A stretch of 62,178 nt of DNA, filler included. It is 7 parts of 7 records of this genome, joined end to end, with 100 filler letters (N's around TTAATTAATTAA, not from the genome) between each part and the next. Parts side by side here need not be neighbours in the genome. Positions count along the whole stretch, not along the records: positions 12,549 to 18,050 come from SRR31156797_43128; 6 more parts are not named here. One strand, given 5' to 3'. Below, one piece after another: positions 238 through 41,452 of this stretch (position 1 is the stretch's first letter; each line of letters starts with the position of its first letter). The notes under the pieces were generated by a model. That model was not told the DNA's origin and did no database searches. It saw only the letters and a list, made by a program, of their open reading frames with translations. Position numbers and translations under genes: made by a program.

Positions 238-1212
238 ATGAACGGTATTGAAAAGAATGTTCTGGTAATCGGCGGGGCGGGTTATATCGGTTCGATGCTC
301 ACAGGCATGCTGTTGAAGAATGGCTATCGGGCCACGGTGTACGACAGTCTTCTTTTTGGCGAAGAGTCGCTGTCGGGATTTGAGGATCATCCGAATTTCG
401 AGCTTATAAAGGGAGATATAAGGGATATAACAGGAGTTAATTCAGCGATCCGGGGTAAGGACGCGGTCATACTTCTGGCGGCCCTGGTCGGAGAGCCGGC
501 ATGCGACCGTGATACAAGTGAGACACTGGACATAAACTTGTTCGCGAACCTCAATATAGTTGAAACATGCCGATATTACGGCATAAATAGATTCTTGTTC
601 GCCTCAACCGATTCTTGTTACGGCATCCAGGAAGGCATTCTGTACGAGGATTCGCCTCTGAACCCGATTTCCCTATATGCTGAATTAAAATGCGAAATGG
701 AAAAAAGGATCCTGGCGGCGGCGTCCAGTGAATTTCATCCGACCATCTTGCGGTTGGCCACGGTTTACGGGCTTTCTCCACGCATGAGATTTGACCTGAT
801 CATAAATATTCTGACCATGCATGCGGTGGTTAACAACAGAATAAAGATTTTCGGAGGCAAGCAGTGGCGACCCCTGGTTCACGTGGCGGACGTGGCCCGG
901 GCTTTTGTCCATACTCTGGAAATGCCTTTGGACTCTGTCTCCAGTGAAATATTCAACATCGGGTCCAACGAACAGAACTATCAGATCGGAACACTGGGCG
1001 ACCTGGTAGTGCAGACGCTGCCCGGCATAGAAGTGGATACAATCGAGCAGCCGCCCGACCTGAGGGACTATCACGTTAATTTTGACAAAGCCGAAAATCG
1101 GATGGGATTTACATCCCAATGGTCGGTGGAAGGCGGAATTCTGGAAATTGAAAAAGCGCTCAGGACCGGGGCCATATCCGATCCGGGCAGCCAGATTTAC
1201 AGGAACGCATAA
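238..1212 (+). CDS. NAD-dependent nucleotide-sugar epimerase/dehydratase (extended SDR)
   Basis: GGAGYIG Rossmann motif, YAELK catalytic YxxxK, RPLVHVADVA; RBS AAGGA upstream. Confidence 0.9.
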   Translation: MNGIEKNVLVIGGAGYIGSMLTGMLLKNGYRATVYDSLLFGEESLSGFEDHPNFELIKGDIRDITGVNSAIRGKDAVILLAALVGEPACDRDTSETLDINLFANLNIVETCRYYGINRFLFASTDSCYGIQEGILYEDSPLNPISLYAELKCEMEKRILAAASSEFHPTILRLATVYGLSPRMRFDLIINILTMHAVVNNRIKIFGGKQWRPLVHVADVARAFVHTLEMPLDSVSSEIFNIGSNEQNYQIGTLGDLVVQTLPGIEVDTIEQPPDLRDYHVNFDKAENRMGFTSQWSVEGGILEIEKALRTGAISDPGSQIYRNA

Positions 1213-1228
1213 CTATCCGGGTATAAAA

Positions 1229-2488: not shown

Positions 2489-3159
2489 TTCCTAATACGG
2501 ATTTCAATATTTGGGAACATTCTGAAAATGTACTCCGATTATATGCCTCAAGAGCCAGGGGCGAGCAGTCCATGGATTCGGCGGAGCAGGCGGCCGAAAT
2601 ACTGGCGCCCTTATTGACTCCGGGCATGAGCCTGCTGGATGCCGGCTGCGGGAGCGGATATTACTATTGGTCTTTTAAAAACCGGGGATTGGAGATCGAG
2701 TATTATGGAATTGATTATTCCCCCAGCCTGATCGAGATCGGCAGGCGCAATATAGGGGAATCGGGCTTGCCGCCGGAGCGGCTTAAGGTCGGGGCGATTG
2801 AAGATTTGGACGAAACCTTTGACGCGGTCATCTGTTTTAATACGCTTTCGTGGTGTCCCGATTTTCGCAGGCCCGTTGAAATGCTTTGCCGGGCCGCGAA
2901 AAATTACATCCTGATCAGGACAAACCTGGGTAAAAAGACCATGTACCGCTGGGAGGCGGACGGTTATCTGGATGAAGGCTATAATCACCTCAAGGCTTAC
3001 TGGAACATGTATTCGGAAAAGGAAGTTACGGATTTTATGTCCGAAATGGGCTTTGAAGTTGAGCCCATTGTCGACGCCAGGACCGGCGGCGTGATGGAAG
3101 AAGTCGTAGGAAAGCCATATTTTTGGAAACTGCTGCTGGGCTGGCGAAGGGAAGGTTAA
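2485..3159 (+). CDS. Class I SAM-dependent methyltransferase
   Basis: LLDAGCGSG motif I, GIDYS motif II, FDAVIC; ATGA overlap with upstream gene. Confidence 0.88.
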   Translation: MIPNTDFNIWEHSENVLRLYASRARGEQSMDSAEQAAEILAPLLTPGMSLLDAGCGSGYYYWSFKNRGLEIEYYGIDYSPSLIEIGRRNIGESGLPPERLKVGAIEDLDETFDAVICFNTLSWCPDFRRPVEMLCRAAKNYILIRTNLGKKTMYRWEADGYLDEGYNHLKAYWNMYSEKEVTDFMSEMGFEVEPIVDARTGGVMEEVVGKPYFWKLLLGWRREG

Positions 3160-4118
3160 TGGAAACCAGGGCCTTAGGATCAACCGGACTTGAAGTGTCG
3201 GTTATCGGCCTGGGGGGACATCTGTTTCCGGAAAAGCCGGTGGATTATTACCCAGGTTTTTACGGCCGCCGTTTTTTGGAAGGCGAGTTTTATGGAAAAA
3301 GGCTCGGGATTATAGAAGAGGCTCTTCGCGGCGGAGTCAATCTTTTTGCGGCTGATTTTGAATATGAATGCCGCGCCTTGGGCCGGGCTCTCAAGGAGAC
3401 CGGGGCGCGGGACAGGGTGCTTTTATCCGCGGTGGTTGAATTCAGACCGGAGCCGGGTTCCCCTATAAAATGGGGCGAACTTGAAAAAGAGATAGACAGG
3501 CTCCTTGCTCTTTTGAATACCGACAGGATCGACCTGCCCCAGATAAGAACGGCTGACTGGCACGTGGAAGAAAATATTCTGGCGGATATGGCAGGCCTGC
3601 TGGCCGGACTGGCGGAAAAAGGCAAGATCGGGGTCCCGGCGTTTTACAGTTCTGACAATGATGTGAATGTTTTAATTACGGGTTTGAGACAAGGCCTTTT
3701 TAAAGTGGTTTTACGGGCCATGGGGCTGCTTAACCCGACTGCATATTTAAAGGTGTTACCCGAAGTTGTAAGGGCGGACGCAGGGTTCATCGGTTTTGTG
3801 CCTTTTCAGAAAGGGAGGCTTTTCGACTGCGGGTTTGAAGCTGGATTAAACGCCGATTCAATAGCCGGGGCCGGGATTAGCTGGGTGATGAACCAGGAGG
3901 GCTTATCCGGATTAATGTGCGGCGCATCGAACCCGGAAGAAGTGGCCATGAATATCGATCGCGTCAACAACCCGCTGCCGGAGATGGAATTAAAGAATAT
4001 TCTGGCCGGCATCATTGAAACAAATGCGTATGACGCACATATTAGCGAGTTGCAAAAGGAGGCCGGTCATTTGGTTCTGGATTGGAGAAAGTCCGATCCG
4101 GAAGGTCCGGGCTGTTGA
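3159..4118 (+). CDS. Aldo/keto reductase-fold protein (catalytic residues apparently degenerate)
   Basis: METRALGSTGLEVSVIGLGG N-terminus, LNTDRIDL, GKIG, GASNPEEV; TAATG overlap with upstream stop. Confidence 0.75.
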   Translation: METRALGSTGLEVSVIGLGGHLFPEKPVDYYPGFYGRRFLEGEFYGKRLGIIEEALRGGVNLFAADFEYECRALGRALKETGARDRVLLSAVVEFRPEPGSPIKWGELEKEIDRLLALLNTDRIDLPQIRTADWHVEENILADMAGLLAGLAEKGKIGVPAFYSSDNDVNVLITGLRQGLFKVVLRAMGLLNPTAYLKVLPEVVRADAGFIGFVPFQKGRLFDCGFEAGLNADSIAGAGISWVMNQEGLSGLMCGASNPEEVAMNIDRVNNPLPEMELKNILAGIIETNAYDAHISELQKEAGHLVLDWRKSDPEGPGC

Positions 4119-5104
4119 GTCAAATGCTGCATTATCGACATGGAGAACAGAGTGACCCTTTCCTTTATATTTATTCCGATCCCGGATGGCTCAGGGATTA
4201 CGACCCGGTTCGGGAATTTCCGTTTTGGGTGAATATAGAATCCACGAACCTGTGCAATTTGGATTGCATATTTTGCACCCGCCAGCTTTGCCGGGGATCC
4301 CGGGGATGCATGCCCGACAGTGTGCTGGACAGGATTATTGAGGAAGTTGCCGCCTATCCGGGTGCGGCCATACGAATAGCGGGCTGGGGGGAGCCGCTCA
4401 TGCATCCTGAATTTACCGAACATGTAAAGAGAATAAAACATTCCGGGATTCCCCTAAAGATATATACAAATGGAACGCTTTTGAATGACGAAATGATGGA
4501 AGCGTTCGTGGAAGCCGGGGTGGACGAGATTCAGTTCAGCATGCAGGGTTTGAATCCGACCCAGTATGAATTCAACCGCCGAAAATCAAATTATGACCTG
4601 TTCAGATCCAAGGTGGAAATAGCAGGCGGGGTGCGTGAGAGGACGGGGAGCGGGAAGCCTTTTTTGAGTCTTCTTACTTCAGCTCTTTTAAGCGAATTGA
4701 ACGAGGCGTCGCCAAAAGCCTTTATTAATGAATGGTCGCCCCTGGTGGACAAGGCGGCCGTGGACTTGACCAATCTAAATTTTGTCAGGGAATGCGAGCG
4801 GATTAAGCATTTGCTGGACGACCAGGCTTTGAGCATGGCGCACAGGCCTTGCGTGGACGTATTTCTGGCCATTGAAGTTAATTACGACGGGGCGATTCAA
4901 TTTTGCGGACAGGATGCCTGCCGGACCCCTGAGCATACCATAGGGAACATACAGGACATGACCATTTATGAAGCCTGGCATAGTGAAAAGATGGAAAAGC
5001 ACAGGCAGGCGGTGGGGCGTGAAATCCGGCATGATGAAATGATCATCTGCCGCAACTGTTACCACAACACGAATAAATATGACCTTTTCAAGGAAAAATA
5101 TTAA
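4115..5104 (+). CDS. Radical SAM enzyme with C-terminal SPASM/Twitch domain
   Basis: CNLDCIFC (CxxxCxxC), GWGEPLMHP, YTNGTLL; C-terminal PC...FC...IGNI...CRNC. Start TTG 4115 or ATG 4124. Confidence 0.9.
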   Translation: MSQMLHYRHGEQSDPFLYIYSDPGWLRDYDPVREFPFWVNIESTNLCNLDCIFCTRQLCRGSRGCMPDSVLDRIIEEVAAYPGAAIRIAGWGEPLMHPEFTEHVKRIKHSGIPLKIYTNGTLLNDEMMEAFVEAGVDEIQFSMQGLNPTQYEFNRRKSNYDLFRSKVEIAGGVRERTGSGKPFLSLLTSALLSELNEASPKAFINEWSPLVDKAAVDLTNLNFVRECERIKHLLDDQALSMAHRPCVDVFLAIEVNYDGAIQFCGQDACRTPEHTIGNIQDMTIYEAWHSEKMEKHRQAVGREIRHDEMIICRNCYHNTNKYDLFKEKY

Positions 5105-6041
5105 CGGCCTTTTAAATTTGGCCAAAGCTCATTCGGCCTGGCCTCTACAGCCGGGAAAGGCGGAGGCGCCGGGCGATGAGGCCCGTGAACTGGTCCGTGA
5201 CCTGGAAAGTCATTTTGAGCGCAAAGACGCCTGCGTAATAACTACCGGGGGAGCGGATTATTCCAATGCGGCCGGTTGGGCAAGGCTTTTGGAATGGGAT
5301 ACTGAATTTTTCGGATATCCCTGCGCCAGGATAGAAGGATTGATGGCAGCCGGCGACAATGAAACAAGACGAAGGTCAGCCGGGGAAGTTGTTCAAGGAA
5401 TTCTTGACTGGTGTGTGAAAAAGGAAGTTCGTTTCATAAACGTCAAGGTTCCGGGGCCGGACCCGGCTATTGTCCAGGCCTTGATGGAAAAAGGATTTTA
5501 TTTCGCGGACAGCATCATGGAGCTGGACCGGGGTAATGATGCCCCGATTCCTCAACCGGTCGTTCCCAAGGAATTAACGATACATTCCAATGCCAGGGAT
5601 ATTGAACTTGCGGCCGGCAAATTTTCTTCATTGTTTTATGACGGCAGGTTCCACAACGATCCGCACATTTCAAAAAAAAAGGCGGACAGTTTATGGGAAG
5701 CGGCATTAAGAAGCCAATTGCAAGAGCGAGCAAGACATTTCTTTTTTCTGGGAAATGAAAAGGAAGATATTGGATTGGCAACCTTCCAAACCATTGACGG
5801 CCTGAAAGGGAAAGATAACGGACTTATAGGCAGCCTGTTTTTTTTCGGCATTTTAAGGGAATTCCAGGGCCGGGGCTTGGGCCGGGCGCTGTTGGCCGAA
5901 AGTCTAAGCAAGGTAGAGGCTGATTACAAACGGATCAAGGTTGAGACTTCAACCTACAATTTTCCGGCCCTAAGACTTTATCAGGCCTTTGGGTTTAAAC
6001 CCGGGCGGGTGAAGATGAGCATGCATTTGAGGTTTGATTGA
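5079..6041 (+). CDS. GNAT acetyltransferase, WecD/RffC-like (amino-sugar N-acyltransferase)
   Basis: LEWDTEFFG, GRFHNDP, FQGRGLGRAL acetyl-CoA loop, NFPALRLYQAFGF. Confidence 0.85.
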   Translation: MTFSRKNINGLLNLAKAHSAWPLQPGKAEAPGDEARELVRDLESHFERKDACVITTGGADYSNAAGWARLLEWDTEFFGYPCARIEGLMAAGDNETRRRSAGEVVQGILDWCVKKEVRFINVKVPGPDPAIVQALMEKGFYFADSIMELDRGNDAPIPQPVVPKELTIHSNARDIELAAGKFSSLFYDGRFHNDPHISKKKADSLWEAALRSQLQERARHFFFLGNEKEDIGLATFQTIDGLKGKDNGLIGSLFFFGILREFQGRGLGRALLAESLSKVEADYKRIKVETSTYNFPALRLYQAFGFKPGRVKMSMHLRFD

Positions 6042-6047
6042 CAAGAA

Positions 6048-7076
6048 ATGGATATGAACAGGGATTTAAAAACTCATTTTGAAATCGGCGGAATTCGGGT
6101 CGGGCCCGGCGAACCAGCCTTGGTTGTGGCCGAAATCGGCGGCAATCACGGGGGCGACGTCGACCTGGCTTTAAAGATGATAGACGCGGCATTGGATGCC
6201 GGTTGCATGGCGGTCAAATTCCAGGCGTACAAGACCGGTTCTTTTCTGGCCGGGACCAGCGAATATTTTGATGAACTGGCGGCTGAAGAACTTGGTTTTG
6301 AAGAGATGGCCAGGCTGGCGGATTACTGCGACCGAAAAGGAATGCTATTTCTGGCTTCCGTGTTTGATTTTGAAAGTCTTATTTTGATGGTGCGGTCGGG
6401 AGCGCCGGCCATTAAGATTTCTTCCGGGGATTTAAACAATTTTCCATTGCTTGAAGCTGCGGCCGGAACCTGCAAACCGATTATACTTTCGACAGGGGCG
6501 TCCAATCAGGAAGAAGTTGCGCGCAGCCTGGATTTTTTACATCAATCCGGGGCTGAGGATGTGCTCCTGCTCCAGTGCACATCCATGTATCCCTGCCCGG
6601 ATGACGAGGTCAACCTGTCCGTAATACCATTCTGGCAATCCCAAACAACAGCTCCGATTGGATTTTCAGACCATTCGATCGGCGTGACCATACCCATCGG
6701 GGCCATGGCTCTGGGGGCCTGCCTGGTGGAAAAACATTTCACTATCGACCAGGGGCTTCCGGGCGGAGATAACGAGATATCCTGCCTGCCCCATGAACTG
6801 GCTCAATTGGTCGAAGCTTCAAGTCGCTTATATAAGGCCATGGGCGGTGCGGAAAAAGAGCCAACCAGGGGAGAATTAAACCTTCGAACGGCCATCCGTC
6901 GTTCCGTGGTTGCCATAAAGGATATAAAAGCCGGGGAAAAGTTCGGCCTGCACAACCTGGGTTTTAAAAGGCCCGGGGATTATGCCGAACCGGTTGAGTA
7001 TTATCACCTGGCCGGGAAAGAGGCAAAAAGGGATGTGGCCGAGGGCCGGCCTGTAACCAGGGAGGCGGTGGAGTGA
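6048..7076 (+). CDS. neuB: Nonulosonic acid synthase (NeuB/PseI/LegI family) with SAF domain
   Basis: VAEIGGNHGGD, AVKFQ, KISSGDLNN, ILSTG, QCTSMYP, GFSDHS, EKHFT, RRSVVA...KRPG. Confidence 0.92.
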   Translation: MDMNRDLKTHFEIGGIRVGPGEPALVVAEIGGNHGGDVDLALKMIDAALDAGCMAVKFQAYKTGSFLAGTSEYFDELAAEELGFEEMARLADYCDRKGMLFLASVFDFESLILMVRSGAPAIKISSGDLNNFPLLEAAAGTCKPIILSTGASNQEEVARSLDFLHQSGAEDVLLLQCTSMYPCPDDEVNLSVIPFWQSQTTAPIGFSDHSIGVTIPIGAMALGACLVEKHFTIDQGLPGGDNEISCLPHELAQLVEASSRLYKAMGGAEKEPTRGELNLRTAIRRSVVAIKDIKAGEKFGLHNLGFKRPGDYAEPVEYYHLAGKEAKRDVAEGRPVTREAVE

Positions 7077-7867
7077 CTTTTCAGGTGTGCCTGCCCATAT
7101 CGGACCTGATTACGGCTGATATTGCATCGACCAAGGCATTACTGGATGCCGCCGATGTGCTGGAGCTTAGAAAGCCTGTATTGCCGGCGGATTTGCCTGA
7201 CAAAACCATGATTTATCACTGGAGCCTGGGAACCGTTCAGGAAGGCTTTATTGAAACATTTGAAAAAGAAAACCTGGGTGAGTTTTTATCCGGCCATAAT
7301 ATTGAAATGTTCAGTTTTGACATGGGGCCGGCCTGCAGGAAGAACGATTATGTTCTGCCTATGTCTCGAACCTTGAAACCTGAAGAGATTATGGAAATTT
7401 CTTCCAGGTCCCTGGAACATGTGCGAGGGCGATACCAGGGTCGTTTGGCAGTGGAAAATTACAATTATTATCCGACGGGGCTGTACGAACATATCTGCCG
7501 TCCTGATTTTATGGCGGAGTTTTTGTTCAGATTTGATCTTGGACTGGTGCTTGACCTGGCTCACGCCTGGATAAGCGCGGCAAACCTGGGCCTGGATGTA
7601 AAGGAGTATTTAATGGAATTGCCGCTGGATAAAGTGGTTGAAGTCCATGTAACCAGGCCTCTTTTTTTAGACCGTCTGGCGGTTGACGCCCATTTGGCGC
7701 CGGGAGACGAAGATTTTGAACTGCTTGTTTTTTTGTTGAAGCGCCTGCCGAACGGCAGCAGGCCGACGCCGGTTGAAATAGAGTACTATAAGGATTTGGA
7801 AGGTCTTGAGGCCGGATACAAAAGGCTTGGGAATATATTGGATGAAATCAACAATGAACGGAAATAA
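7073..7867 (+). CDS. DUF692 family multinuclear non-heme iron oxidative enzyme (MNIO)-like protein
   Basis: Ordered motifs IYHWSLG, LAVEN, LVLDLAHAWISAANLG, LPLDKVVEVHV, VDAH, VEIEY match the DUF692 TIM-barrel ligand pattern; GTGA overlap with neuB. Confidence 0.75.
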   Translation: MTFQVCLPISDLITADIASTKALLDAADVLELRKPVLPADLPDKTMIYHWSLGTVQEGFIETFEKENLGEFLSGHNIEMFSFDMGPACRKNDYVLPMSRTLKPEEIMEISSRSLEHVRGRYQGRLAVENYNYYPTGLYEHICRPDFMAEFLFRFDLGLVLDLAHAWISAANLGLDVKEYLMELPLDKVVEVHVTRPLFLDRLAVDAHLAPGDEDFELLVFLLKRLPNGSRPTPVEIEYYKDLEGLEAGYKRLGNILDEINNERK

Positions 7868-8909
7868 AAGCGTAAAAGTAAATCCGCGGCCCGAAAGAAT
7901 GAATGCGGAAGAAAAGCTGAGCAGGAAAAACGCTTTTGACGGCAGCCTGGTCATGGGCGCGGAAAATTTTAACCGGGCCACGGGCCGGGATCGTCATTTT
8001 AATGACGGGCTGGATTCGTTGATAGATGAAAGAACAAACCTGATTAAAAGCCGGTATACCAAGGATCGCTTCTGTCCTGTTTGCGGCTGCCAAAACCCGG
8101 AATTGTTATTTGTCAAAAGGGGATTTCAGCATGTGCGTTGCCCGGAATGCGCGCTTATTTACGTGAATCCCGTTTTGATGGATGAAGCGGTATTGGAGCA
8201 TTACACCAATGAGACATCCTGGGTCCAGGTTTTGGAAAGCGGTCCACAGGTACAACTTGATAGCCTGAAGTATGAATACGGCCTGGATACTGTTGCACCG
8301 TATTTAACCGGAAACAACCTGCTGGACGTGGGAACGGGCACGGGACTTTTCTTAAAGGTCGCCGCCGGGCGGGGCATGGATCCAACAGGATTGGAGTTGA
8401 ACGGACATAACGTATCCCGTTTACGGCAGGATGGCTTTGATATTGTTGATCAACCCCTGGAACAGGCTGATTTTGGCGTTAGAAAATTTGACATGGTTAC
8501 GTTTTGGGAAGTGTTGGAGCATCTGGTCGAGCCAGGATCGCCGCTTGAGCAGGCCGGCCGTGTTTTGAAGCATGACGGTTTGCTGCTTATACTGGTTCCA
8601 AACGCGGATTCCCTGGCCACAAGGATATTGCATGAAAAAAGCGGGACATTCGGCGGGCACTCACATGTTAATCATTTCAATATAAACAACCTGACCCGTC
8701 TGCTGGATAAATGCGGGTTTGAGATGATGGAAGCCGAGACCATTATTACCGAATTGGGAGCGATTAATAATTATCTGAATTTTGAAGATCCGTATTTCGG
8801 CCGGGCGCCTGCTCAACTTGATTTGCTGAGTCCCGGATTCATCCATGAAAACATGCTGGGCAGCAAGTTGTTAATTTTGGCCAGACACAAGAATAAAGGG
8901 AGCAGATGA
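7854..8909 (+). CDS. SAM-dependent methyltransferase with N-terminal zinc ribbon
   Basis: CPVC...CPEC ribbon, LLDVGTGTG, FWEVLEHL, VPN. Start ATG 7854 or 7899. Confidence 0.85.
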   Translation: MNGNKSVKVNPRPERMNAEEKLSRKNAFDGSLVMGAENFNRATGRDRHFNDGLDSLIDERTNLIKSRYTKDRFCPVCGCQNPELLFVKRGFQHVRCPECALIYVNPVLMDEAVLEHYTNETSWVQVLESGPQVQLDSLKYEYGLDTVAPYLTGNNLLDVGTGTGLFLKVAAGRGMDPTGLELNGHNVSRLRQDGFDIVDQPLEQADFGVRKFDMVTFWEVLEHLVEPGSPLEQAGRVLKHDGLLLILVPNADSLATRILHEKSGTFGGHSHVNHFNINNLTRLLDKCGFEMMEAETIITELGAINNYLNFEDPYFGRAPAQLDLLSPGFIHENMLGSKLLILARHKNKGSR

Positions 8910-8910
8910 A

Positions 8911-9594
8911 ATGATCCTGGGTATAATACCGGCCCGCGGCGGCAGCAAGGGCATTCCAAGAAAGAATATTAAATTGATCAACGGGCGTCCGTTGATTGCC
9001 TGGTCCATATTTGCCGCAAGGGAATCAAAACTATTGGACAGGTTTGTGGTGTCCACGGAAGACGACGAGATCGCGGCGGTCGCGGAGCAATACGGGGCCG
9101 AAGTGCTAGAGCGGCCTGCTGCGTTAGCCGGAGATGCATCCAGCAGCCGTGATGTAATTCAACACGCCCTGGAAGCGCTTGACGCCGATGTATCCGTGCT
9201 CCTGCAGCCTACTTCGCCGGTAAGGGACCACGATCTGATCGACCGGGCGATAAAGGCGTTTATTGACGGCGGTTATGATTCAATGGCCACGGGATATATG
9301 AATCCGGTTTATCCGCCTCATGGTGAAGAGCACCGAAGACAGGATATAAGCGAAGTGTTCGTCAATGACGGAAGCATTGTAATATCTACAAGGGATACTA
9401 TAAAGGCCAGGAATCTTTTTGGGAAAAAACGGGGAATAATGGTCACTGACAAGGAACAGAATGTGGACATTGATGATGAATTTGATTTTTGGCTGGCAGA
9501 GCAGGTGCTGATTAAGCGGTTTGGGGATGGGGTTTTGATTTTACCGGAAGAAAGGGATGTGCGTTTGCTGCGTTCCGCGGCCGGGGGAAATTAA
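8911..9594 (+). CDS. neuA: Acylneuraminate cytidylyltransferase (CMP-nonulosonate synthetase)
   Basis: IIPARGGSKGIPRKNI, VVSTED, LLQPTSPVR, VDIDDEFDF. Confidence 0.93.
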   Translation: MILGIIPARGGSKGIPRKNIKLINGRPLIAWSIFAARESKLLDRFVVSTEDDEIAAVAEQYGAEVLERPAALAGDASSSRDVIQHALEALDADVSVLLQPTSPVRDHDLIDRAIKAFIDGGYDSMATGYMNPVYPPHGEEHRRQDISEVFVNDGSIVISTRDTIKARNLFGKKRGIMVTDKEQNVDIDDEFDFWLAEQVLIKRFGDGVLILPEERDVRLLRSAAGGN

Positions 9595-12448: not shown

Positions 12449-12548
12449 NNNNNNNNNNNNNNNNNNNNNNNNNNNNNNNNNNNNNNNNNNNNTTAATTAA
12501 TTAANNNNNNNNNNNNNNNNNNNNNNNNNNNNNNNNNNNNNNNNNNNN
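12449..12548. other. Artificial contig spacer
   Basis: 44 N + TTAATTAATTAA + 44 N. Confidence 0.99.
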
Positions 12549-12938
12549 GCCGGTCAGATCTGCTTCTCTCAGGTCCGCCCATCGCAGGTCCGCGCCTTCC
12601 AGATCGGCGTACGCAAAGCATGCCTGTTGAGCGTTCACTCCTTCCAGATTGGCGTTTTTCAATCTGGAGTTCGACATGTCAGCCCCCGTCAGGTCGCAGT
12701 CTTTCAACACGGCCCCTCTGAGATCCGCTTCCCTGGCCCGGACTCGGCGCAATACAGCTGTATTCAGGTTTGCGTTTCTCAGGTCGCAATCCGTCAGGTC
12801 TGTCTGAAAAAGGACGGCTCCCCACAGGTTCGTTCCCGCCGCCCTCGCCAATCGAAGTGAAGCGCCGGACAGGTCGGCGCCTAGTAAATTTACTCCAAGC
12901 AGGTTTAACGCATCCAGACGGCATCCGGAAAAATCCAG
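12549..12938 (-). repeat. Pentapeptide repeat (right-handed beta-helix) coding region
   Basis: GADLSGASLRLA...ADLRGAVLKDCDLTGADMSNSRLKNANLEG...ADLEGADLRWADLREADLTG; runs into the contig end. Confidence 0.9.
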
Positions 12939-15263
12939 GTAACACAGGCAATCCGGGACCGGCCGGCTTCCGGATTTGAAATGCTGTTTTTGCAGCGTGC
13001 GAATCCAGTCTCCGGCGCTGGTTTCTGTAGGCCAGGCGATACTGCTTCGTGTATCCGTAATTGTTGCACAGGCCGCATGCAGTATGAAAAGAGCTGTTTC
13101 AGCGTTCCATGCCCAAAGCGTCATTTCCCGGAACTGCATGGGTCTTATGGTGCGATGTAGAGGAAGCCCGTTAAGCGCCGCACGTTCCATGAAGCGAGCC
13201 AGCATATCTCGCCAGTCTGATACCTCCTCGCGGTCCTCCATGCGGATCTGTCCCGTCAGTAGCCTTGACAGGTCCATGTGAATAGGGGCCGGACCGAAAA
13301 ATTCAGTCCATCGAAGCAGGGCGGTTTCAACGATCAAGCCTCCTGAGCCGGATTCCCTTCGCCGGTCCAGTTCGGATTTCAGCGTTCTCAGTTCGTCGAT
13401 TATTTTCCTTACAACAAGCAGTTCACGGAAACTGTCATGCGAGAACCTGATCGCGGCCGGCCGTCCCCGGTCGTCGCGCTTCAATTTAAACAGCCCTAAA
13501 ACGCCCATATCAACCTGTTCCATCATGGCTTCCAGTTGAGAGACCAGGCCAAGCCTGTCAAACCTTGCACGCAGGTCAACCATGCCGATTTCAGGCTGCC
13601 GCAAGCGCCAGCACATAACGGCTATTTCTTCCAGAATCGTCATAAAGGATTTTCGGTCCAGGGGATACAGCCAGCGGTATGGTCTGCGATCGTCATAGGT
13701 CCGGTCGTAAATTGTTTCAAAAAACGATTCTGTTATCAATCTGAAGCTGTTTGAATCCTCCCAACCGCATTGCCCTCTTCGGACGGCCAAAACCGACAGG
13801 TACTGCATCATAGGAGACGCTGCTGCGACCTGGAATTCACGGGAAGCGCCGTCAAATGCGTTGCGGATTTCGGAAGCGGGAAATCCCGTGGCGTCCTCGA
13901 ATTTATTCCACCAGGCGATCCTTTGATCTTCAACGAGGAGGCCGTCCGGATCGTCATACTTATGGCGTTCTTCCTCGGGGATGTACAGGGGCAGAAGCTC
14001 ATAAGTCAACGTTTCCGGCGGCAGCATATCGGCCAGGTCTTCGACGAAAACAGGCCACGCTGTCGCCAGGGCCGCCGCTCGACGCCCGTCCCGGTTCCAT
14101 TTGTCAAGAAATCCAAGCAAGGATTTCAGAAAACCGCGGCTTCTTTCCATGTAAAAAGGGGCCGTCATTCTCAGATCGTTCAAATGGCTGAATATCAAAA
14201 GCAGCGGTTTTTCCGAGGGCGCCTCGTTCATCGGACTTTCGTTGAATAGATCTTTTTCCCGAATAAACGAGTAGATTGCGTCATCCAGGTCATCCACGAA
14301 TTCGAAATCGGATACAGGAATAAAAAGGACTCGACTCCCGGTTTTTTCCAGGAAACGTCGGGTCAGGTTAAGGCCGAACGTCAAAACCCCGCTCCCCGGC
14401 GCCCCGGTCAGGAACCGCAGCGCATCATCTTTATTTCCTGATTCATACCAATTTATCAGTTCGGTTTCCGGGTCGACGACCTTTTTTCGACTCTTTGGGG
14501 ATGCAGCCTCAAGTTCGTTGAATTCATTCAAAATTCCGGATTGAGCCAGGCGGCCGGCCCGGAGCGGAACATACATCTGATCCAGGTTGAACGTTTCGAC
14601 TCCGTACACGGGCCGGGCCATACGGAAATGAGCTTCATAGCGGCGGGAAAGCCAGGAACGTTCAAGGCTCGGGCCGGCGGTAAACGGTGTAGACCACGCA
14701 TCGGACAATGGCGCATATACAGCGGGATTCGAACGTATTTCGCAATCCATGAACCAGGTAAAATAATCCGGCAGCCTTTTGACTATTGTCTCCGGTTTTA
14801 ACGGCTTGTAATCATGCCGAAGCAGCCAGTCCACAAAGACGCTGCTTATATTACTTATTATCGTCATTGTCTCCGGCTTGAGAAAAGACTCGGAGTTCAA
14901 CTCGAAGACCATATCGTCAAGCGGCGATGTCAGGTCTTCCAGTAATTCATCCAGGGATTCAGGATCGCATCTTTCCAGCAGTTGCTCGATCTCGCGCAGG
15001 ATTTCGCACAGCGATCGCGTAAGCCCTCTCCAGACCAGAACGAAGGCCAGGCTGTCAGGGTCGCGGTCCGCCTTTATCGGAGATATTGCGTCCATGGCTT
15101 CCCGGACTCGATCATCCCATTCGCGCGTGGAACGGCTTGTCAGTATCAGGGATAATGATTTGAAAAGAAAAACAGGAGACAGGCCGAAAGGCTCCAACCT
15201 CTCTTTCAGACTGAGATCCGCTGAATATGTGTGCTCTTCCGTCATCAAGAAGCCCTTTCCCAT
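12549..15263 (-). CDS. NACHT/STAND-like protein with C-terminal pentapeptide repeats (3' truncated)
   Basis: LDQMYVPLR pre-NACHT motif, FLTGAPGSGVLT (Walker A-like), LLLIFSHLNDL (Walker B-like), FSHDSFRELL, then A(D/N)Lxx repeats. Confidence 0.8.
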
Positions 15264-15716
15264 GTTTGAAAATTCTATTTAGATACCATGAAAGGCTGCA
15301 TTCTATTTACTTTTCGTAGTTGTAGTCAATAGACCGGATGCCGTCAACACATATATAATTCGCAAAGATCAATAGTCGCTTGACATAAACATCGTGGTAA
15401 GCGAGAATTAAGCCCATTTGTATACATGTGATTATTAAAAATATAATACAGGATGAAACATAATTGTTCAGTTGGCCGGCAACGGTTTTCATAACTTTTA
15501 GCCCCAACTGATCAGACCGAATACACTATTAAATAAGCATCTGGCCATAAATGGTTTACCGGCCCAATCTCATTGTCGGATGAAACAATTAATCCTCGAA
15601 ATATAGCAATATTCCTGTGGTTATCTTGTTTTCTCTTCTTTGATATTGAACAAAACCCCTTATTTCCGGACAGACGCTGATAATAAAATGCAGCAACTAG
15701 ATGTGGCTCAGCCACT

Positions 15717-18050
15717 ATGGAGCGCCCTATGGAGTACCTGAACGAGAAGAAATATTCGTTTGTTTCCCATGAACTGTCGGAGGAAACCTTTGGAGTAGTG
15801 AGTTTTCGGGGAGTAGAGGGCCTGAGCCGATGCTACGAGTTCGAGATTGACCTGGTTTCGGCTGGTGAGAAAATCAACCTGGACGCGGTGCTGCAGGGGA
15901 CGGCGACGTTCACGATTCATCGTTCCATAGGCGACGACGTTGTATTTCACGGCATTCTGGACCACATAGAACAACGACACGCGTATAATGAATATGTCTT
16001 TTACCGGGCTCGGCTGGTTCCTAAACTCTGGTGGCTGAACCTGATTCATCACAATCAGATATTCCTTGAGCAGTCGTTGCCGGATATTATAGATGCGGTG
16101 CTCAGGGACGGCGGGATCTCACACGAAGATTTCGAATTACGCCTGCAAAAGAACTACCCGGTAATGGAGTACGTCTGCCAGTATCGTGAAAGCCACTTTG
16201 ATTTCCTGTCGCGTTGGATGGAAAAGAACGGGTTATACTACTTTTTCGAACAGGGCGACACGGCTGAAAAACTTGTCATAACCGATAGCACGCTCGCGCA
16301 TGGGGTTATGCCCCAGGGACGGAGTGTAACTTACTCCCCTCCGTCCGGTTTGGATTTTGACCACTTCGACGAGGTCCTTCAAACTTTCACCTGCCGCCAG
16401 CAGATGCTGCCAAGCGAGGTTCTGCTCAAAGATTACAATTACCGCAAACCTTCCCTGGAAATAAGCGGATCGGCCGCTGTTCTACCTCAGGGACGAGGAC
16501 AGTTCTATTACTATGGCGACCATTTCAGCACTCCGGATGAGGGAGATGCACTGGCAGAGGTCCGGGCCGAGAGTTTCCTTTGCCGCCGACGCATGTTTAC
16601 GTCACACAGCTCAGTACCCTATATCCGGGCGGGATATTGCTTTGATCTGGAAGATCATTACCAGAACGACTTTAATCTAAAATATCTGACCATAGAAGCG
16701 ACTCACGAAGGCAGTCAAGCCGGGTACCTCATCGACGGGCTCAGCCAGTCCATACCGGAGGAAAAGCGCCGTGCCTATTATCGCAATCATTTCAAGGCTA
16801 TCCCTACAGACGTACAGTTCCGGCCTGAGCAGGTCACGGAAAAGGCTCGTATCTACGGCGCCATGAATGCATGGATTGACGGTGAGGGTTCCGGACAGTT
16901 CGCGGAACTTGATGACGAGGGAAGGTACAAAGTGGTTCTGCCCTTTGATCAGTCCGGCCGCAAGAACGGAAAAGCATCCGCCTTCGTTCGTATGATACAA
17001 CCCTACGGCGGCGCCGGGCACGGCATGCATTTCCCGCTGCATAAAGGGACGGAAGTCATCCTTACTTTTATAGACGGCGACCCTGATCGACCGATCATCG
17101 CCGGCGCCGCTCCCAATCCCACGCACCCAAGCGTGGTCAACAGCGCCGAGGGAACCAAGAACGTAATCACCACGGCCAGCGGAAATCATTTTCATATGGA
17201 GGATCTACCGGGCAAGGAGCGTATTCTGATGCATGTGCCCAACCGGCAATCCTTCATCCGTATCGGCGCTCCCAATGACCCGAGCGTCGATGATCCACCG
17301 GATTCCGAAAAGAAGAATGACGACGGTGAAGCGGTAAAAAATACCGATTCAATCGTTGATAAGGATGAAAAGGAAGATAAGGAAGATAAAAAAGGCGGGG
17401 TGGTCAAGGAGGCGGCTATTATCGGCGCCGGCGCGGCTATTGCCGCCGTGGGCGAGGCGGTCAGCGGTTCCGCATCGGTTGACGCCGGTTCGGGACATCA
17501 TCCTCCTCATCCTCCAAGGCCAAAGCCTCCAGGACCTCCGGGCCCCCCGGGACCTCCGGGACCGCCAGGCCCACAGGGGCCTCCAGGAGATAAAGGACCG
17601 GATGGAGATCAGGGGCCCGACGGCGAACCGGGGCGCCAGGGTGAAGAAGGTCCCCAGGGCGAGCCCGGCGAGCAGGGGCCGCAAGGCGAGGCAGGTCAAA
17701 AGGGCGCACCAGGCGACAAGGGGCCGCAGGGAGAGCAAGGCGCTGCGGGAACTCCGGGCGTACCGGGCGCACCCGGTCCACAGGGTGAACCCGGCCCGCA
17801 GGGTGAACCAGGAGATAAGGGCCCGCAGGGCGAATCCGGAGAAAAAGGCGCGGACGGGGATAAAGGCGAAACAGGCGACAAGGGTCAGGCAGGCGACAAA
17901 GGCGAAACCGGCGATAAAGGACCGCAAGGCGAGGCAGGTCAAAACGGAGAACCAGGAGACAAGGGCCCCGAGGGTGAACGCGGTGCAACAGGCGCGCCGG
18001 GCGTACCAGGCGCTCCAGGGCCGCAGGGTGAAGCAGGATCAAAAGGCGAA
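15717..18050 (+). CDS. vgrG: Type VI secretion spike protein VgrG with collagen-like C-terminal extension (3' truncated)
   Basis: EGLSRCYEFEIDL, YVCQYRESHFDFLSRWMEKNGLYYFF, DYNYRKP, FRP, DDEGRYKV, GMHFPLHKGTEVILTFIDGDPDRPIIAGA (gp27/gp5 OB fold). Confidence 0.92.
17532..18050 (+). repeat. Collagen triple-helix repeat, 57 uninterrupted Gly-X-Y triplets plus a partial one
   Basis: GPPGPPGPPGPPGPQGPPGDK...GEAGSKGE in frame with vgrG. Confidence 0.97.
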
Positions 18051-18150
18051 NNNNNNNNNNNNNNNNNNNNNNNNNNNNNNNNNNNNNNNNNNNNTTAATT
18101 AATTAANNNNNNNNNNNNNNNNNNNNNNNNNNNNNNNNNNNNNNNNNNNN
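18051..18150. other. Artificial contig spacer
   Basis: N-run with TTAATTAATTAA. Confidence 0.99.
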
Positions 18151-21032: not shown

Positions 21033-22217
21033 ATGAAGATAACAGCCATTCGTGCAACAGCCGTCAGCATTCCATTTGACGCCCCCTATATCTGGTCCGT
21101 GGGGGAGTACACCGGAATTACAAGGGTGGTGGTGGAGGTCGAAACGGATCAGGGGATCACAGGATATGGTGAGGCGCCCTCATGGGAATGTGAAGCTGAT
21201 ATCAATGATTTCATGGCCCCCAGACTTGTTGGGGCGGATCCCTTTGACATCGAATCCTGTGAGCTTTTGTGCGTGCCCGAGACCAAGGTGCTTGCCAACA
21301 CGGACGGAAACACGAGTCTTAAATCCTTTGGGGGGATCGAGATGGCCCTTTGGGATATCCGTGGAAAGGCTTGGGATATGCCTTTGTATAAGATCCTGGG
21401 AGGGGCTGTTCGAAAAGAGATTCCAATGACGGAATACTTTTCCCTTCGTCCCAGAAGGGGAGATGCCGGTGGGCAAAAGACCCCTGTTGATATCGCGGCC
21501 TATTGTGCCAGGATGCGTGAACTCCACGGGTCTACCTATTTTGAAGGAAAATGTTCCACGGGTGATCCCAAATTTGACATCCAGGTGATAAAGGAAGTTC
21601 GGAGTGCCGTCGGCGATGATGCCATGATTCGTCTGGACGGAAACATGGCATGGTCCTTAAGCTCGGCACGGGAGCTGGTTAAAGGGCTTGAACCCTACAA
21701 TATTCGTAACTTTGAAGATCCTGTGGCAACCTTCTGGGAAATGGAAAAATTGAGAAAACACACGGATATTCCCTTTTCGACCCATACTCCCAACCTGCCC
21801 CTGGCGGTTCGCCTCGGGGTGCCGGATTCGTTTGTTTTAAATCTGACCGCCATTGGGGGGATCTCCCGGACCATGAAGTTCATTGGTGCATGTGAGGCCA
21901 TGGGAGTTGATTTCTGGCTTTACAGCGGTGATACAGGGGTGGCGACCTCTGCCTATCTTCACGTATCCGCTGCCTGCAGGCATCTCCATGAACCAAGCCA
22001 GGCCCTGTTCCGGTTTCAGCCGGAAGATGTGATCGAGGGGGGGCCTTATTCCATTAAAAATAATACCATCAAAGTGCCGGAAGGTCCGGGATTGGGAATC
22101 TCCCTGGACAGGGCCGCCATGAAAATTTGCCATGAGCGCTTCCTGTCAGAGGGACCCATGGATCAGTATTATAATGCTAAAAAGCCTGGAACCTATGTTC
22201 GTCTTCCCCTCAGCTGA
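21033..22217 (+). CDS. Enolase-superfamily enzyme (mandelate racemase/MLE fold, glucarate-dehydratase-like)
   Basis: VVVEVETDQGITGYGE, GIEMALWDIRGKA, IRLDGNMAWS, FEDP, VPEGPGLGI. Confidence 0.88.
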   Translation: MKITAIRATAVSIPFDAPYIWSVGEYTGITRVVVEVETDQGITGYGEAPSWECEADINDFMAPRLVGADPFDIESCELLCVPETKVLANTDGNTSLKSFGGIEMALWDIRGKAWDMPLYKILGGAVRKEIPMTEYFSLRPRRGDAGGQKTPVDIAAYCARMRELHGSTYFEGKCSTGDPKFDIQVIKEVRSAVGDDAMIRLDGNMAWSLSSARELVKGLEPYNIRNFEDPVATFWEMEKLRKHTDIPFSTHTPNLPLAVRLGVPDSFVLNLTAIGGISRTMKFIGACEAMGVDFWLYSGDTGVATSAYLHVSAACRHLHEPSQALFRFQPEDVIEGGPYSIKNNTIKVPEGPGLGISLDRAAMKICHERFLSEGPMDQYYNAKKPGTYVRLPLS

Positions 22218-22301
22218 ACCGAGGAATTTTATGCAAATGGCCCCATGGCCGAACCTGCTTTCGACCATGGGCCATCAACAGGTGATGATTAGAAAAAGGA
22301 G

Positions 22302-23732
22302 ATGCAAGCTGTGTACGATCGAATGCAAACATTAACCATGGAAGAGATGACCCGTGTCCATGAAGCTTCAATGGATATTTTGAAAAATACAGGGATCATT
22401 TTCAACGATCAGGAAGCCTTGGAGATATTCGCTGAAAATGGTTTTAGGGTTGATGATAAGACCGTATTCTTTCAGGAAAAAGATATTTCAATGGCCCTTG
22501 AAACCTGTCCTTCCCGATTTAAGATCACCGCCAGGAATCCTGCCCAAAGCGTATGGGTGGGTGAGGACGATTTTGTTTTTCTACCCTCATCCGGTGCACC
22601 GTTCATTGCGACAGAAACAGGCGAGCAACGCCAGGCCACCATTGAGGATTATGAGAATTTTTGCAAGCTGGTTCAAACTTCCAAACATGTCGATATGATT
22701 GCCAGCACAATGGTGGGCCCGACCGACATCCCTACGGATAAGGCGCACCTGGATATGCTTCTTGCAAATATTTTATTGTGCGATAAACCCTTCATGGGCA
22801 GCTCTTTTTCCAGGCAGGGATGCCGGGATACCATGGAAATGGCTTCCATTGTCTGGGGAGGGAAGGAAAAATTAAAAGAGATGCCGGTGACGGTTAATCT
22901 TATCAATCCCCTTTCTCCGCTTGCATATTCAGAGGAAATGACCGGTTCCATCATTGAGTGTTCAAGATTGAGGCAACCGCTTTTGATTGCCAACATGGTG
23001 ATGGCGGGCTCCTCGGGTCCGATCCGGCTGGCAGGCGTACTGGCAATGCAGACGGCTGAAGTCCTGGCCGGTCTGGTACTTGCCCAGCTGGTTGGTCCGG
23101 GTACGCCGATCATCATTGGTGCCACATCGACACCCCTGGATATGAAATCCGGTGCCGCTCCCATCGGGGCTCCGGAAGTTCCGGTTCTGGTCTCAATGAC
23201 GGCCCAGATGGCCCGTTTTTATAAACTGCCCAGCCGCAGTGGCGGTGGTTTGACAGATGCCCATTCCCCCGATGCCCAGGCGGGTATGGAATCGGCGCTT
23301 ACATTGTTGACCGCAGTCCGTAACGGCGTAAATTTTATCCTTCAGGGCTGCGGCACCATGGGCGGGTACATGACCATCAGTTATGAGAAATTTATTATGG
23401 ACGAAGAAATGTGCGGCATGATTCGTACCATGCTCTCGCCCGTCGAAATTACAGATGAGAGTATCGACGTTGAAACCATCAAAAAGGTGGGGGCCGGCGG
23501 ACAATACTTGACGCAGCCAGCCACATTGAAACGGTGCCGGTCTGAATTCTTCATGCCGGAATTGAACAATCGGAAGAATTATTCCGCATGGACCAGTGCC
23601 GGCAGCAAGTCCATCAATGTCCTGGCCACGGAAAAAGTGGCGGCAAGACTTGAACATTACCAAAAACCGGAAATCGATGCTGGGGTGGAAAAGGCGTTGC
23701 ATGACTATGTGAACCTGCGCAAGCAAAAATGA
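22302..23732 (+). CDS. MttB-superfamily (trimethylamine methyltransferase family) corrinoid methyltransferase, non-pyrrolysine
   Basis: VHEASMDIL, INPLSPL, GAPE, PSRSGGGLTDAHSPDAQAGMES, SYEKFIMDEE; no in-frame TAG. Confidence 0.9.
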   Translation: MQAVYDRMQTLTMEEMTRVHEASMDILKNTGIIFNDQEALEIFAENGFRVDDKTVFFQEKDISMALETCPSRFKITARNPAQSVWVGEDDFVFLPSSGAPFIATETGEQRQATIEDYENFCKLVQTSKHVDMIASTMVGPTDIPTDKAHLDMLLANILLCDKPFMGSSFSRQGCRDTMEMASIVWGGKEKLKEMPVTVNLINPLSPLAYSEEMTGSIIECSRLRQPLLIANMVMAGSSGPIRLAGVLAMQTAEVLAGLVLAQLVGPGTPIIIGATSTPLDMKSGAAPIGAPEVPVLVSMTAQMARFYKLPSRSGGGLTDAHSPDAQAGMESALTLLTAVRNGVNFILQGCGTMGGYMTISYEKFIMDEEMCGMIRTMLSPVEITDESIDVETIKKVGAGGQYLTQPATLKRCRSEFFMPELNNRKNYSAWTSAGSKSINVLATEKVAARLEHYQKPEIDAGVEKALHDYVNLRKQK

Positions 23733-23804
23733 CGGGCCCATGCGGATCTTCCGCAATCGGCTTGTAGGCATTTTACAATCAAATTACCCTGAAAGGAGAA
23801 TTAG

Positions 23805-25478
23805 ATGAACCAGAAAAATGAAAATGGGAAATGGTCTATGCGATGGGGGGTTATCATTCCGCCTCTGATGATATTCGGTTTCATTATTGTCATGGGGCTT
23901 GTCAATGAAAAGGTTTTTGTTGATACCCTGTGGAAGCTGTTTAAATGGTTGATGACGAACTTCGGGTGGGCTTTGGATTTAGGGTGTCTGGCATTTGTGC
24001 TCTTTTCGATCGTTTTGTTGATTCATCCCATAGGGCATATAAAGTTTGGAGGCAAGGACGCCAAACCGGAATTCAGCACCTTTACATGGTGGTGCATCTC
24101 CCTGTGTGCCGGTATGGGAACAGGTATTGTTTTTTGGCCACCGGAAGCGTTGACCCATGCATTGAAACCTGCAAGGGGGATGTTTCTGGAACCGGGCAGT
24201 CATCAGGCCATTATTTGGGGGATGAGTCAAACTTTTTTACACTGGACATTTACGCCATATGCAATCTACGTGGTCTGTGGTGTCTTGATCGCTTTTTCAT
24301 ATTATAATTTAAAAAAACCGTTTGCGGTGAGTTCCGCCCTTTATCCCCTTGTTGGCGATAAAGTCTTTGGAAAGCCTGCAACATTCATTGATTCCTTAAT
24401 GCTTTTCGCCATTACCGGCGGGGTCGCAGGGTCCCTGGGGGTGGGGCTTATGCAGCTTGGACGGGGGCTTGAATTCTTCGATATCGGTATAAAATCAGGT
24501 CCTGTTGTATGGACGATCATTTGCGTTCTGATTGTTGCCTGCTATACCACATCGAGCGCTACAGGCCTGCACAGGGGCATTCAATGGCTCAGTAATAAAA
24601 ATGCGTGGCTTTTCATTATTATGCTGACCTTTGCGTTTGTTTTCGGTCCCAAGGCCTTTACCCTTAATCTGTCAACCCAGACCGCTGGTTATTATGTGAC
24701 CCATTTTTTTCAGTCAATGACTTTTACCGATCCCTTTCCCGGTGGTGATATGTGGCCCCAATGGTGGGATATGTTCTTTTTTTGCGATTGGCTTTCATTT
24801 GCACCCATCACTGGAATGTTTTTGGCCCGACTGTGTTATGGAAGAACCATTCGCGAATTTTTAGCCATTAATCTGGTGCTGCCCGCATTGTTCTGCATGG
24901 TTTGGATGGGTGTGTTCGGCTCTCTCACCATCCATGCTCAGTTTGTTCAGGGGGTTGACTTGGGCGCTTTGATGGAATCCAAAGGCTTGGAAGTCCTTAT
25001 GCTCAAAATCTTTGATTTCCTTCCCCTGGCCAGTCTCTTAAGACCGTTGATGATGCTGACCATTTTTATCTCTTTTGTGACCCTGGCCGATTCCATGACC
25101 AGTACCGTATCCTGGCTGAGCATTACCAAAGGGGAAGGATATACAAGCCAGGAAGCTCCCTTGAGCTTGAAACTATTCTGGGGAATCCTGATGGGAGCCA
25201 CGTCGTTGATTTTTATCTTCTGTGGCGGCCTGGACGGGGTTAAGGTCGTAAAGACCATGACCGGTGTACCCATTCTGATCACGGAAATATGTATGATGGT
25301 CGGATTCATACTGTACTCCGTAAAACACAAACTCGGACTTCAGGGAAGAGAAGAATTGATGGCGCGTGCTTTTGCTGAAAAAAAGAAGCGTAACCCGGAG
25401 AACTCGAAAATTTTCGAACCGTCCCTTTGTGCCAGTGAGTCCATCACTGAACAGGTGAAAGCGGAAACTCAATGGTAA
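23805..25478 (+). CDS. BCCT family (betaine/carnitine/choline) transporter
   Basis: IKFGGKDAKPEFSTFTW, AGMGTGIVFW, FLHWTFTPYAIY, WLSNKN, GRTIREF, FVTLADS. Confidence 0.93.
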   Translation: MNQKNENGKWSMRWGVIIPPLMIFGFIIVMGLVNEKVFVDTLWKLFKWLMTNFGWALDLGCLAFVLFSIVLLIHPIGHIKFGGKDAKPEFSTFTWWCISLCAGMGTGIVFWPPEALTHALKPARGMFLEPGSHQAIIWGMSQTFLHWTFTPYAIYVVCGVLIAFSYYNLKKPFAVSSALYPLVGDKVFGKPATFIDSLMLFAITGGVAGSLGVGLMQLGRGLEFFDIGIKSGPVVWTIICVLIVACYTTSSATGLHRGIQWLSNKNAWLFIIMLTFAFVFGPKAFTLNLSTQTAGYYVTHFFQSMTFTDPFPGGDMWPQWWDMFFFCDWLSFAPITGMFLARLCYGRTIREFLAINLVLPALFCMVWMGVFGSLTIHAQFVQGVDLGALMESKGLEVLMLKIFDFLPLASLLRPLMMLTIFISFVTLADSMTSTVSWLSITKGEGYTSQEAPLSLKLFWGILMGATSLIFIFCGGLDGVKVVKTMTGVPILITEICMMVGFILYSVKHKLGLQGREELMARAFAEKKKRNPENSKIFEPSLCASESITEQVKAETQW

Positions 25479-25554: not shown

Positions 25555-25654
25555 NNNNNNNNNNNNNNNNNNNNNNNNNNNNNNNNNNNNNNNNNNNNTT
25601 AATTAATTAANNNNNNNNNNNNNNNNNNNNNNNNNNNNNNNNNNNNNNNNNNNN
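25555..25654. other. Artificial contig spacer
   Basis: N-run with TTAATTAATTAA. Confidence 0.99.
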
Positions 25655-39124: not shown

Positions 39125-39142
39125 ACTATCTTCCTTATATTA

Positions 39143-41419: not shown

Positions 41420-41452
41420 TTTGATTCCAGACTTAATGGGCAGAAGCCATTT

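Follow-up and report, generated by a model that had tools for sequence, protein, structure and literature searches.

A VgrG-type protein with a collagen-like C-terminal tail, probably an evolved T6SS spike of an uncultured Thermodesulfobacteriota relative

Evolved VgrGs are the textbook route by which the T6SS diversifies the cargo that it delivers, and to our knowledge the C-terminal extensions of the known examples are enzymes, adaptor-binding segments or longer beta-prisms. For Serratia VgrG1 a beta-prism of 186 angstrom is predicted, and a set of genes encoding DUF2169, pentapeptide, DUF3540 and DUF4150 (PAAR-like) proteins is given as the accessory genes of VgrG-PIPY spikes and Tvp complexes (PMC11883445; PMC13373197). 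Collagen on a gp27-like hub has been described for a siphophage protein, Tal of Streptococcus thermophilus and lactococcal phages, in which, as set out in excerpts of the two sources, a trimeric hub is followed by 100–500 residues of collagen-like helix and the extension bears carbohydrate-binding modules for host adhesion (PMC7533335; PMC9437275). With its combination of gp27-like hub and collagen, Tal as portrayed in those excerpts is the closest described analogue of the protein reported here, which we call VgrG-collagen.

Contig, reading frame and domain map

The window (i.e., the whole stretch of DNA that was analysed, 62,178 bases) consists of seven contigs joined by six N44-TTAATTAATTAA-N44 spacers, with a GC content of 0.40–0.53, and the genes on these contigs suggest different organisms (e.g., a T9SS sorting domain on one contig and conjugative-transposon genes on another). 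The contig of the VgrG-collagen gene covers only positions 12549–18050 (5,502 bases, two genes; N spacers begin at 18051), and on its + strand the 778 codons of 15717–18050 form one open frame, whose 3' end is cut by the end of the contig. An earlier note on this DNA had described the frame as a VgrG spike fused to a long collagen helix, and the open codons, the Pfam core and Collagen families and the 57 triplets given below bear this out; its frame of 15717–18050 stands as well, except that translation probably starts at the second ATG, 15729, because relatives begin there and a GGAG lies at 15719–15722. The upstream neighbour was assigned by Pfam as a NACHT/pentapeptide gene, not a phage gene. 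The earlier remark that the contig holds no other T6SS genes was correct and can be extended to the window, since Pfam found T6SS families neither on this contig nor on the other six (51 other ORFs); for this reason a T6SS use of VgrG-collagen would have to be deduced from its relatives only.

All features of the protein are on the + strand. Residues 34–334 (15816..16718) form the gp27-like hub (Pfam Phage_GPD, E 2.7e-77, profile positions 2–303 of 305), and residues 403–464 (16923..17108) the gp5-like OB fold (Pfam Phage_base_V, E 3.4e-08, above the curated cut-off), which is the most conserved stretch in a ten-member family alignment. There follows a short proximal beta-prism stub of ~58 residues (465–522; 17109..17282), which ends where the relatives lose similarity; the short beta segment up to an NDP motif, read from the letters earlier, thus coincides with the end of the conserved core at residue 522. 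The N-terminus is charged, with neither an extension nor a hydrophobic leader, and is collinear with those of cytoplasmic VgrGs (by reading); no signal peptide was found there, by reading and by alignment to relatives.

Beyond the stub lies an acidic/Lys-rich, low-complexity linker of Asp, Lys and Glu (37 residues, 523–559; 17283..17393), which contains a 9-base repeat at 17358–17389 and at whose position the aligned relatives carry charged or Pro-rich linkers. The next 34 residues (560–593; 17394..17495) are a hydrophobic segment of small residues (Gly/Ala/Val/Ile/Ser), with a Kyte-Doolittle 19-residue mean of 1.6 at 566–584 that is the maximum for the whole protein. A transmembrane helix was considered for this segment and rejected, because its uncharged stretch, bounded by Glu565 and Glu580, is just 14 residues long and its mean hydropathy on the Kyte-Doolittle scale is borderline. 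A His/Pro-rich spacer of 12 residues (594–605; 17496..17531) then leads into the collagen-like region, residues 606–778 (17532..18050), two stretches of which match Pfam Collagen PF01391 (E 3.3e-29) and which is truncated where the contig stops. A six-frame scan gave 57 unbroken Gly-X-Y triplets at 17532–18044 and a 58th that breaks off after two residues; apart from an artefact of 7 triplets, read from this same DNA on the other strand, the window has no further Gly-X-Y run of at least 6 triplets. The X and Y positions are 30% Pro and 38% charged residues, and a Pro- and charge-rich composition of this kind is usual in bacterial collagens whose stability does not depend on hydroxyproline. The DNA of this region is made up of internal 9-, 18-, 27- and 36-base repeats and is slippage-prone. 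At 0.286 nm per residue, the 171 residues seen would span 48.9 nm, a lower bound because the frame is cut by the contig end, and in good agreement with the stalk of roughly 50 nm or more that had been proposed earlier.

Sequence across the junction

The junction was compared with Logan contigs (not raw reads) from two runs: X1, the probable source run of the window, and X2, which belongs to another study. One X1 contig of 5189 bases is the same as positions 15000–17737, with 0 differences, and reaches 23 triplets into the collagen, so that the core, the linker, the hydrophobic segment, the Pro spacer and the first 23 triplets were joined by an independent assembler. The part of the junction where a misassembly had been thought conceivable, 17280–17540, is thereby bridged without mismatch, albeit by an assembled contig rather than by raw reads. 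Within the collagen, X1 is broken up into unitigs of 68–142 bases with an exact-match word depth of 50–90 vs 44.6 for the unique part, and variant unitigs occur at the same places; this raised depth and these variants suggest that Gly-X-Y repeats probably continue past the contig end or recur elsewhere.

An X2 contig of 8385 bases matches 15691–17462 with 134 differences in 1772 bases (~92% identical) and also matches part of the gene upstream of VgrG-collagen. It ends at 17462 (residue ~582), having covered the core, the linker and most of the hydrophobic segment; thus a diverged copy of the VgrG with the same neighbour and the same linker exists elsewhere. Short X2 contigs that are 90–95% like 17727–17764 and 17867–17965 have a word depth of 38–88, vs 49.6 for the X2 VgrG contig, and this similar depth of collagen-like contigs is suggestive of the fusion being present in X2 as well. 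The last step into the collagen, bases 17463–17531, was seen in one sample only (X1, probably the window's own sample); run X3, from the sample of X1, gave no contig that matched. The stretch from core to collagen, 17283–17531, is unique sequence apart from one 9-base repeat; GC3 is 0.61 in the core vs 0.53 in the collagen, and the choice of Gly, Gln, Lys and Asp codons is similar in the two.

Relatives, exchangeable tails and the search for other fusions

Judged by its sequence, VgrG-collagen is a member of a Thermodesulfobacteriota-related VgrG clade. The best 120 of 1284 matches to residues 1–600 are VgrGs that are 53–62% identical over residues 1–~520 and mostly 740–780 or ~945 residues long, and where their sources are named these are mostly Thermodesulfobacteriota/Deltaproteobacteria MAGs. 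A core match at E <= 1e-100 was present in 14 of 401 sampled Thermodesulfobacteriota genomes (19 matches, 43–57% identity). Four of the relatives' loci were fetched, and the Pfam scan, made on locus L058 alone, gave the gene order TssC, Hcp, TssE, TssF, TssG, ClpV, VgrG, DUF2169+pentapeptide, pentapeptide, DUF3540 and Tox-PAAR-like; locus L060 resembles L058, accessory genes included, by reading only.

The family alignment of ten members has high identity to residue 522, after which identity vanishes, and the core BLAST match ends at query residue 510–522 in 247 of 269 relatives. Clustering of the tails of 259 relatives (>=40 residues) gave 51 clusters, with 149, 18, 14, 8, 6, 5 and 4 members, then smaller ones, 37 being singletons. 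The main tail type combines a charged linker and a short conserved segment with repeats matching the beta-roll family PF21300, and some of the other types have hydrophobic, membrane-like stretches; the tail of VgrG-collagen matched none of the 259 (best E 0.001, in Pro-rich low complexity). Alignment to solved VgrGs stops at residue 515 of 643 (4mtk) and 534 of 645 (7q5p), ~110–130 residues before their ends, and hence the collagen stands where the distal prism normally is. The suggestion that collagen replaces the needle fits both this early stop and the beta-roll-like tails that relatives carry at the same position. With its fixed swap point and the 51 types of tail carried by 259 relatives, this family offers a natural scaffold on which to study how cargo is exchanged on spikes.

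One relative, P0448 (785 residues, core 52% identical, a single-member cluster from one Logan contig), has the same swap point and, directly after the core, a linker of a Pro-rich spacer and 7 Gly-X-Y triplets, which is followed by an ordinary beta-roll tail. It is like VgrG-collagen in swap point, Pro-rich spacer and triplets, but differs in having only 7 triplets and an ordinary tail, and it is a possible intermediate toward VgrG-collagen. Because its triplets precede a normal tail, an expanded linker with an ordinary distal tip beyond it is a live alternative for the collagen of VgrG-collagen.

Apart from VgrG-collagen, a long Gly-X-Y run occurs in none of the 308 VgrG-like proteins retrieved. 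Searches for other proteins of this architecture (Phage_GPD/Gp5_OB plus Collagen) gave no other long fusion among the matches listed or the genomes sampled. The word-index and library searches were designed so that a close fused relative would rank at the top; they returned the best 120 to 150 matches among about 8000 scored candidates, at which depth distant fusions were possibly missed. PF01391 was found in 0 of the best 120 of 1284 matches when residues 1–600 were searched by word index at near lengths; at longer lengths the matches listed were 3 long VgrGs without collagen and otherwise collagens, nearly all animal; and with residues 400–778 at near lengths the matches listed were VgrGs at up to 205 bits and collagens at up to 230 bits, none having both parts. 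The best 150 matches of the whole protein in a representative library were all core-only, and the ESM Atlas gave plain VgrG clusters only (best score 0.85), with no usable match to residues 380–778.

Scans of DNA gave a similar result. A metagenome scan with the junction peptide (residues 482–641) yielded 14 loci, all matching the Pro-rich/collagen end (query residues 89 onward), one of which, L001, is a phage tail region, and 0 of 14 had a VgrG core; a genome-contig scan with the whole protein yielded 24 loci, of which 23 were collagen-only and 1 was a distant VgrG. PF01391 occurs in 21 of the 401 Thermodesulfobacteriota genomes, where five frames of at least 590 residues were read: none of the five has a VgrG core, and all five have signal-peptide-like N-termini. 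It also occurs in 3 of 42 genomes of the class of genome G075, and by tblastn these 3 loci match from residue 592 onward only. Taken over the 46 loci fetched, there was no VgrG core within the flanks of any of the 45 that bear collagen, the other locus being VgrG-only. No description of a VgrG-collagen fusion was found among the main texts of the open-access literature that were searched, and where papers mentioned both VgrG and collagen, the two stood apart in those that were read.

Interpretation and comparison with known systems

We consider it reasonably probable (about 60%) that VgrG-collagen is a genuine "evolved" VgrG, i.e., a T6SS-i spike, of an uncultured Thermodesulfobacteriota relative, whose exchangeable tail forms a trimeric collagen stalk, at least 49 nm long, that leads to a distal module. 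It would be a trimer because it is homologous to solved VgrGs that are trimeric, and its export would depend on a T6SS. The conserved core (gp27-like hub, gp5 OB fold and the first turns of the beta-prism) would end at the fixed swap point and be followed by the linker and an exchangeable tail, the usual beta-roll-like tail being replaced by the collagen-like sequence. Leaving the trimeric stub side by side, the three chains would be in register and at high local concentration, and the Gly-X-Y repeats would zip up from the N- to the C-terminal end, giving a homotrimeric triple helix with a length of at least 49 nm and a thickness of ~1.5 nm. Bacterial collagen helices are nucleated by N-terminal trimerisation domains, that of Scl2 being an example. 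About 83 residues (linker, hydrophobic segment and Pro-rich spacer), probably flexible, separate the stub from the collagen in VgrG-collagen, so that nucleation would be by proximity or via the hydrophobic segment. As a stalk or spacer, the helix may hold the spike core apart from a distal module beyond the contig; candidates for that module are the family's beta-roll tip with a PAAR-like cap, or a cargo or binding domain. By analogy with P0448, the collagen may be a linker that has been lengthened and is still followed by the ordinary tip with its PAAR-like cap, whereas the precedent of phage Tal suggests distal binding modules instead.

A thin rod at the leading tip is hard to reconcile with the sharp, PAAR-capped point normally required of a T6SS spike, and a rod of 49 nm exceeds the space from baseplate to outer membrane; at the leading end of a T6SS spike it would be hard to house. 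In a bolder version of the proposal, to which we give little credence, the collagen rod is itself a working part of the weapon, a spike-tip filament 1.5 nm thin and at least 50 nm long that acts as a contact-sensing whisker or, along the lines of the harpoon or tether imagined earlier, as a harpoon line. Such a rod would be long enough to start at the baseplate, pass through the membrane complex and arrive at the cell surface; as a whisker it would sense contact there, as the T6SS counterpart of the phage central tail fibre, and as a harpoon line it would tether a distal adhesin or toxin to the spike after firing. Each of these functions, if true, would be a way of targeting or triggering the T6SS of which no description was found.

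Other origins of the frame have to be weighed against an evolved VgrG. That an assembler joined a VgrG gene to a collagen-like gene from another organism or locus is very improbable; such a chimera could account for a contig end that falls within a repeat, for the broken-up collagen part of X1 with its variants and raised depth, and for the presence of the contig in a bin of mixed contigs, but the same path over 15000–17737 came from two assemblers with 0 differences (X1 being probably the window's own sample), the unique stretch between core and collagen offers only one 9-base repeat, core, linker and hydrophobic segment were independently confirmed by X2 to base 17462, and GC3 and codon choice are alike on the two sides. 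The fusion could be real and yet represent a recent, possibly non-functional recombinant, in which a collagen-like gene was captured, or a linker was expanded by slippage, at the swap point without producing a working spike. The rarity of VgrG-collagen is what such an event would leave (a singleton, with no long fusion among 308 other VgrG-like proteins, among the best 120 or 150 matches of four database searches or at 45 collagen-bearing loci), as are the slippage-prone 9-, 18-, 27- and 36-base repeats and the orphan locus beside an unrelated NACHT-type gene. Yet the frame is intact over 778 codons, codon use is homogeneous across core and collagen, and in X2 there is a copy, ~92% identical, that shares its linker and its neighbour gene, along with collagen-like unitigs at matching depth; because this copy comes from a second study, the gene has persisted through some divergence, and we regard a recent recombinant as unlikely.

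It is more doubtful still that the protein is a surface fibre independent of any T6SS, which would have reused the VgrG head only as a block for trimerising or anchoring an exported collagen fibre. The signal-peptide-like starts of all five long collagen frames in the sampled Thermodesulfobacteriota genomes, and the lack of T6SS context in the window, are in keeping with a fibre of this kind. Against it, the N-terminus of VgrG-collagen is residue-for-residue collinear with those of VgrGs from T6SS clusters, with no extension and no hydrophobic leader by reading; the core is 51–57% identical to VgrGs of the sampled genomes, of which the one at the scanned locus L058 has a complete T6SS cluster around it; and the gp27-like domain, by which a VgrG docks on Hcp, falls within the match.

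VgrG-collagen, probably a real and unusual evolved VgrG, is best compared with three groups of proteins, and a collagen on a VgrG was not found described elsewhere. Its putative Gly-X-Y helix, unhydroxylated and rich in charge and Pro beside a globular trimerisation domain, is like those of streptococcal Scl1/Scl2 and Bacillus BclA, and the trimerisation domain of Scl2 is N-terminal, as is the head of VgrG-collagen. The Scl and BclA proteins are Sec-exported and surface-anchored, whereas VgrG-collagen has no leader and its head is that of a contractile-injection spike; in a comparison with solved structures, BclA 1wck was a weak match. With evolved VgrGs, including the long-prism VgrG1 of Serratia marcescens, which works with Tvp accessory proteins (PMC13373197; PMC11883445), it shares the hub, the OB fold, the start of the prism and a variable C-terminal extension, and its relative at L058 has DUF2169, pentapeptide, DUF3540 and PAAR-like genes downstream. 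In VgrG-collagen a PAAR-binding tip and accessory genes would lie past the end of the contig. The extension itself differs, being a Gly-X-Y repeat and not the beta-prism, enzyme or adaptor-binding domain of evolved VgrGs. If a collagen triple helix is indeed carried on the spike, it would add a third type of trimeric fibre to the beta-helix and coiled coil that contractile injection systems use, and the housing and firing of a 50-nm rod would pose a structural puzzle.

The likeness to Tal lies in the gp27-like hub, which is homologous to the VgrG N-terminus, and in collagen stretches that bear distal modules, as proposed here for VgrG-collagen. In the excerpts of PMC7533335 and PMC9437275, Tal is given neither a gp5 OB fold nor a beta-prism, whereas VgrG-collagen has the OB fold; Tal belongs to a non-contractile phage tail and is extracellular, and VgrG-collagen is ~50–60% identical to T6SS VgrGs, not to Tal. 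That VgrG-collagen is itself a siphophage Tal was rejected, given the OB fold, the T6SS VgrGs that are its nearest relatives among the matches listed and the non-phage gene upstream. A collagen-bearing T6SS spike, if true, would be the secretion-system counterpart of the central fibres with collagen that Tal forms in siphophages, and would argue for a shared hub-plus-fibre toolkit.

Collagen-like and hydrophobic tails

P0448, a VgrG relative of 785 aa, carries a Pro-rich spacer and seven Gly-X-Y triplets directly after the conserved core, and the triplets sit between this core and an ordinary beta-roll tail; the long collagen insert of the window protein may have arisen from a short, seven-triplet linker of this kind. 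Among the 51 tail types into which the VgrG clade was sorted, several (e.g., the P0141, P0156 and P0039 types) contain long hydrophobic, membrane-like stretches, which, judged from sequence, suggests that the Thermodesulfobacteriota have membrane-active evolved VgrGs.

Collagen-like matches over about 5 kb were present at L063, one of the collagen-bearing loci fetched from sampled genomes (G405:C18:19000-35000, ~4260-9130, minus strand). The collagen-like stretch is split there among many short open frames and represents either small collagen genes in a cluster or a single very long frameshifted gene; no VgrG core was found near these matches.

Composition and other gene groups of the window

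The seven contigs of the window, with GC from 0.40 to 0.53 and gene content of different lineages, are joined by N44-TTAATTAATTAA-N44 spacers (12449-12548, 18051-18150, 25555-25654, 35898-35997, 44910-45009 and 56515-56614), and no inference is possible across these. A sugar-modification cluster (1082-9591, plus strand) encodes a DegT aminotransferase, NeuB, a cytidylyltransferase, a radical SAM/SPASM protein and methyltransferases, and includes an MbnB/TglH/ChrH-like protein (7073-7864). An MttB-family methyltransferase is found with a BCCT transporter (21033-25475, plus strand); a separate contig carries genes for microcompartment shell proteins (BMC, EutN), accompanied by those for an RnfC-like flavoprotein and a DAO oxidoreductase (37940-44860, minus strand). 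A low-GC contig holds an MbnP-like protein adjoining a di-haem cytochrome c peroxidase (MauG-like; 33750-35836, minus strand), with a neighbouring IgGFc_binding protein of 1186 residues bearing a T9SS sorting domain (29835-33392, minus strand).

The gene divergent from vgrG

Divergent from vgrG lies a gene (12549-15263, minus strand), truncated by the contig start, for a protein with NACHT N-terminal helical domain 3 (NNH3) and pentapeptide repeats at its C-terminal end. Part of this gene also adjoins the VgrG copy in X2, a metagenome run of a second study. Pentapeptide repeats are common to the NNH3 protein and the Tvp accessory proteins of VgrG relatives.
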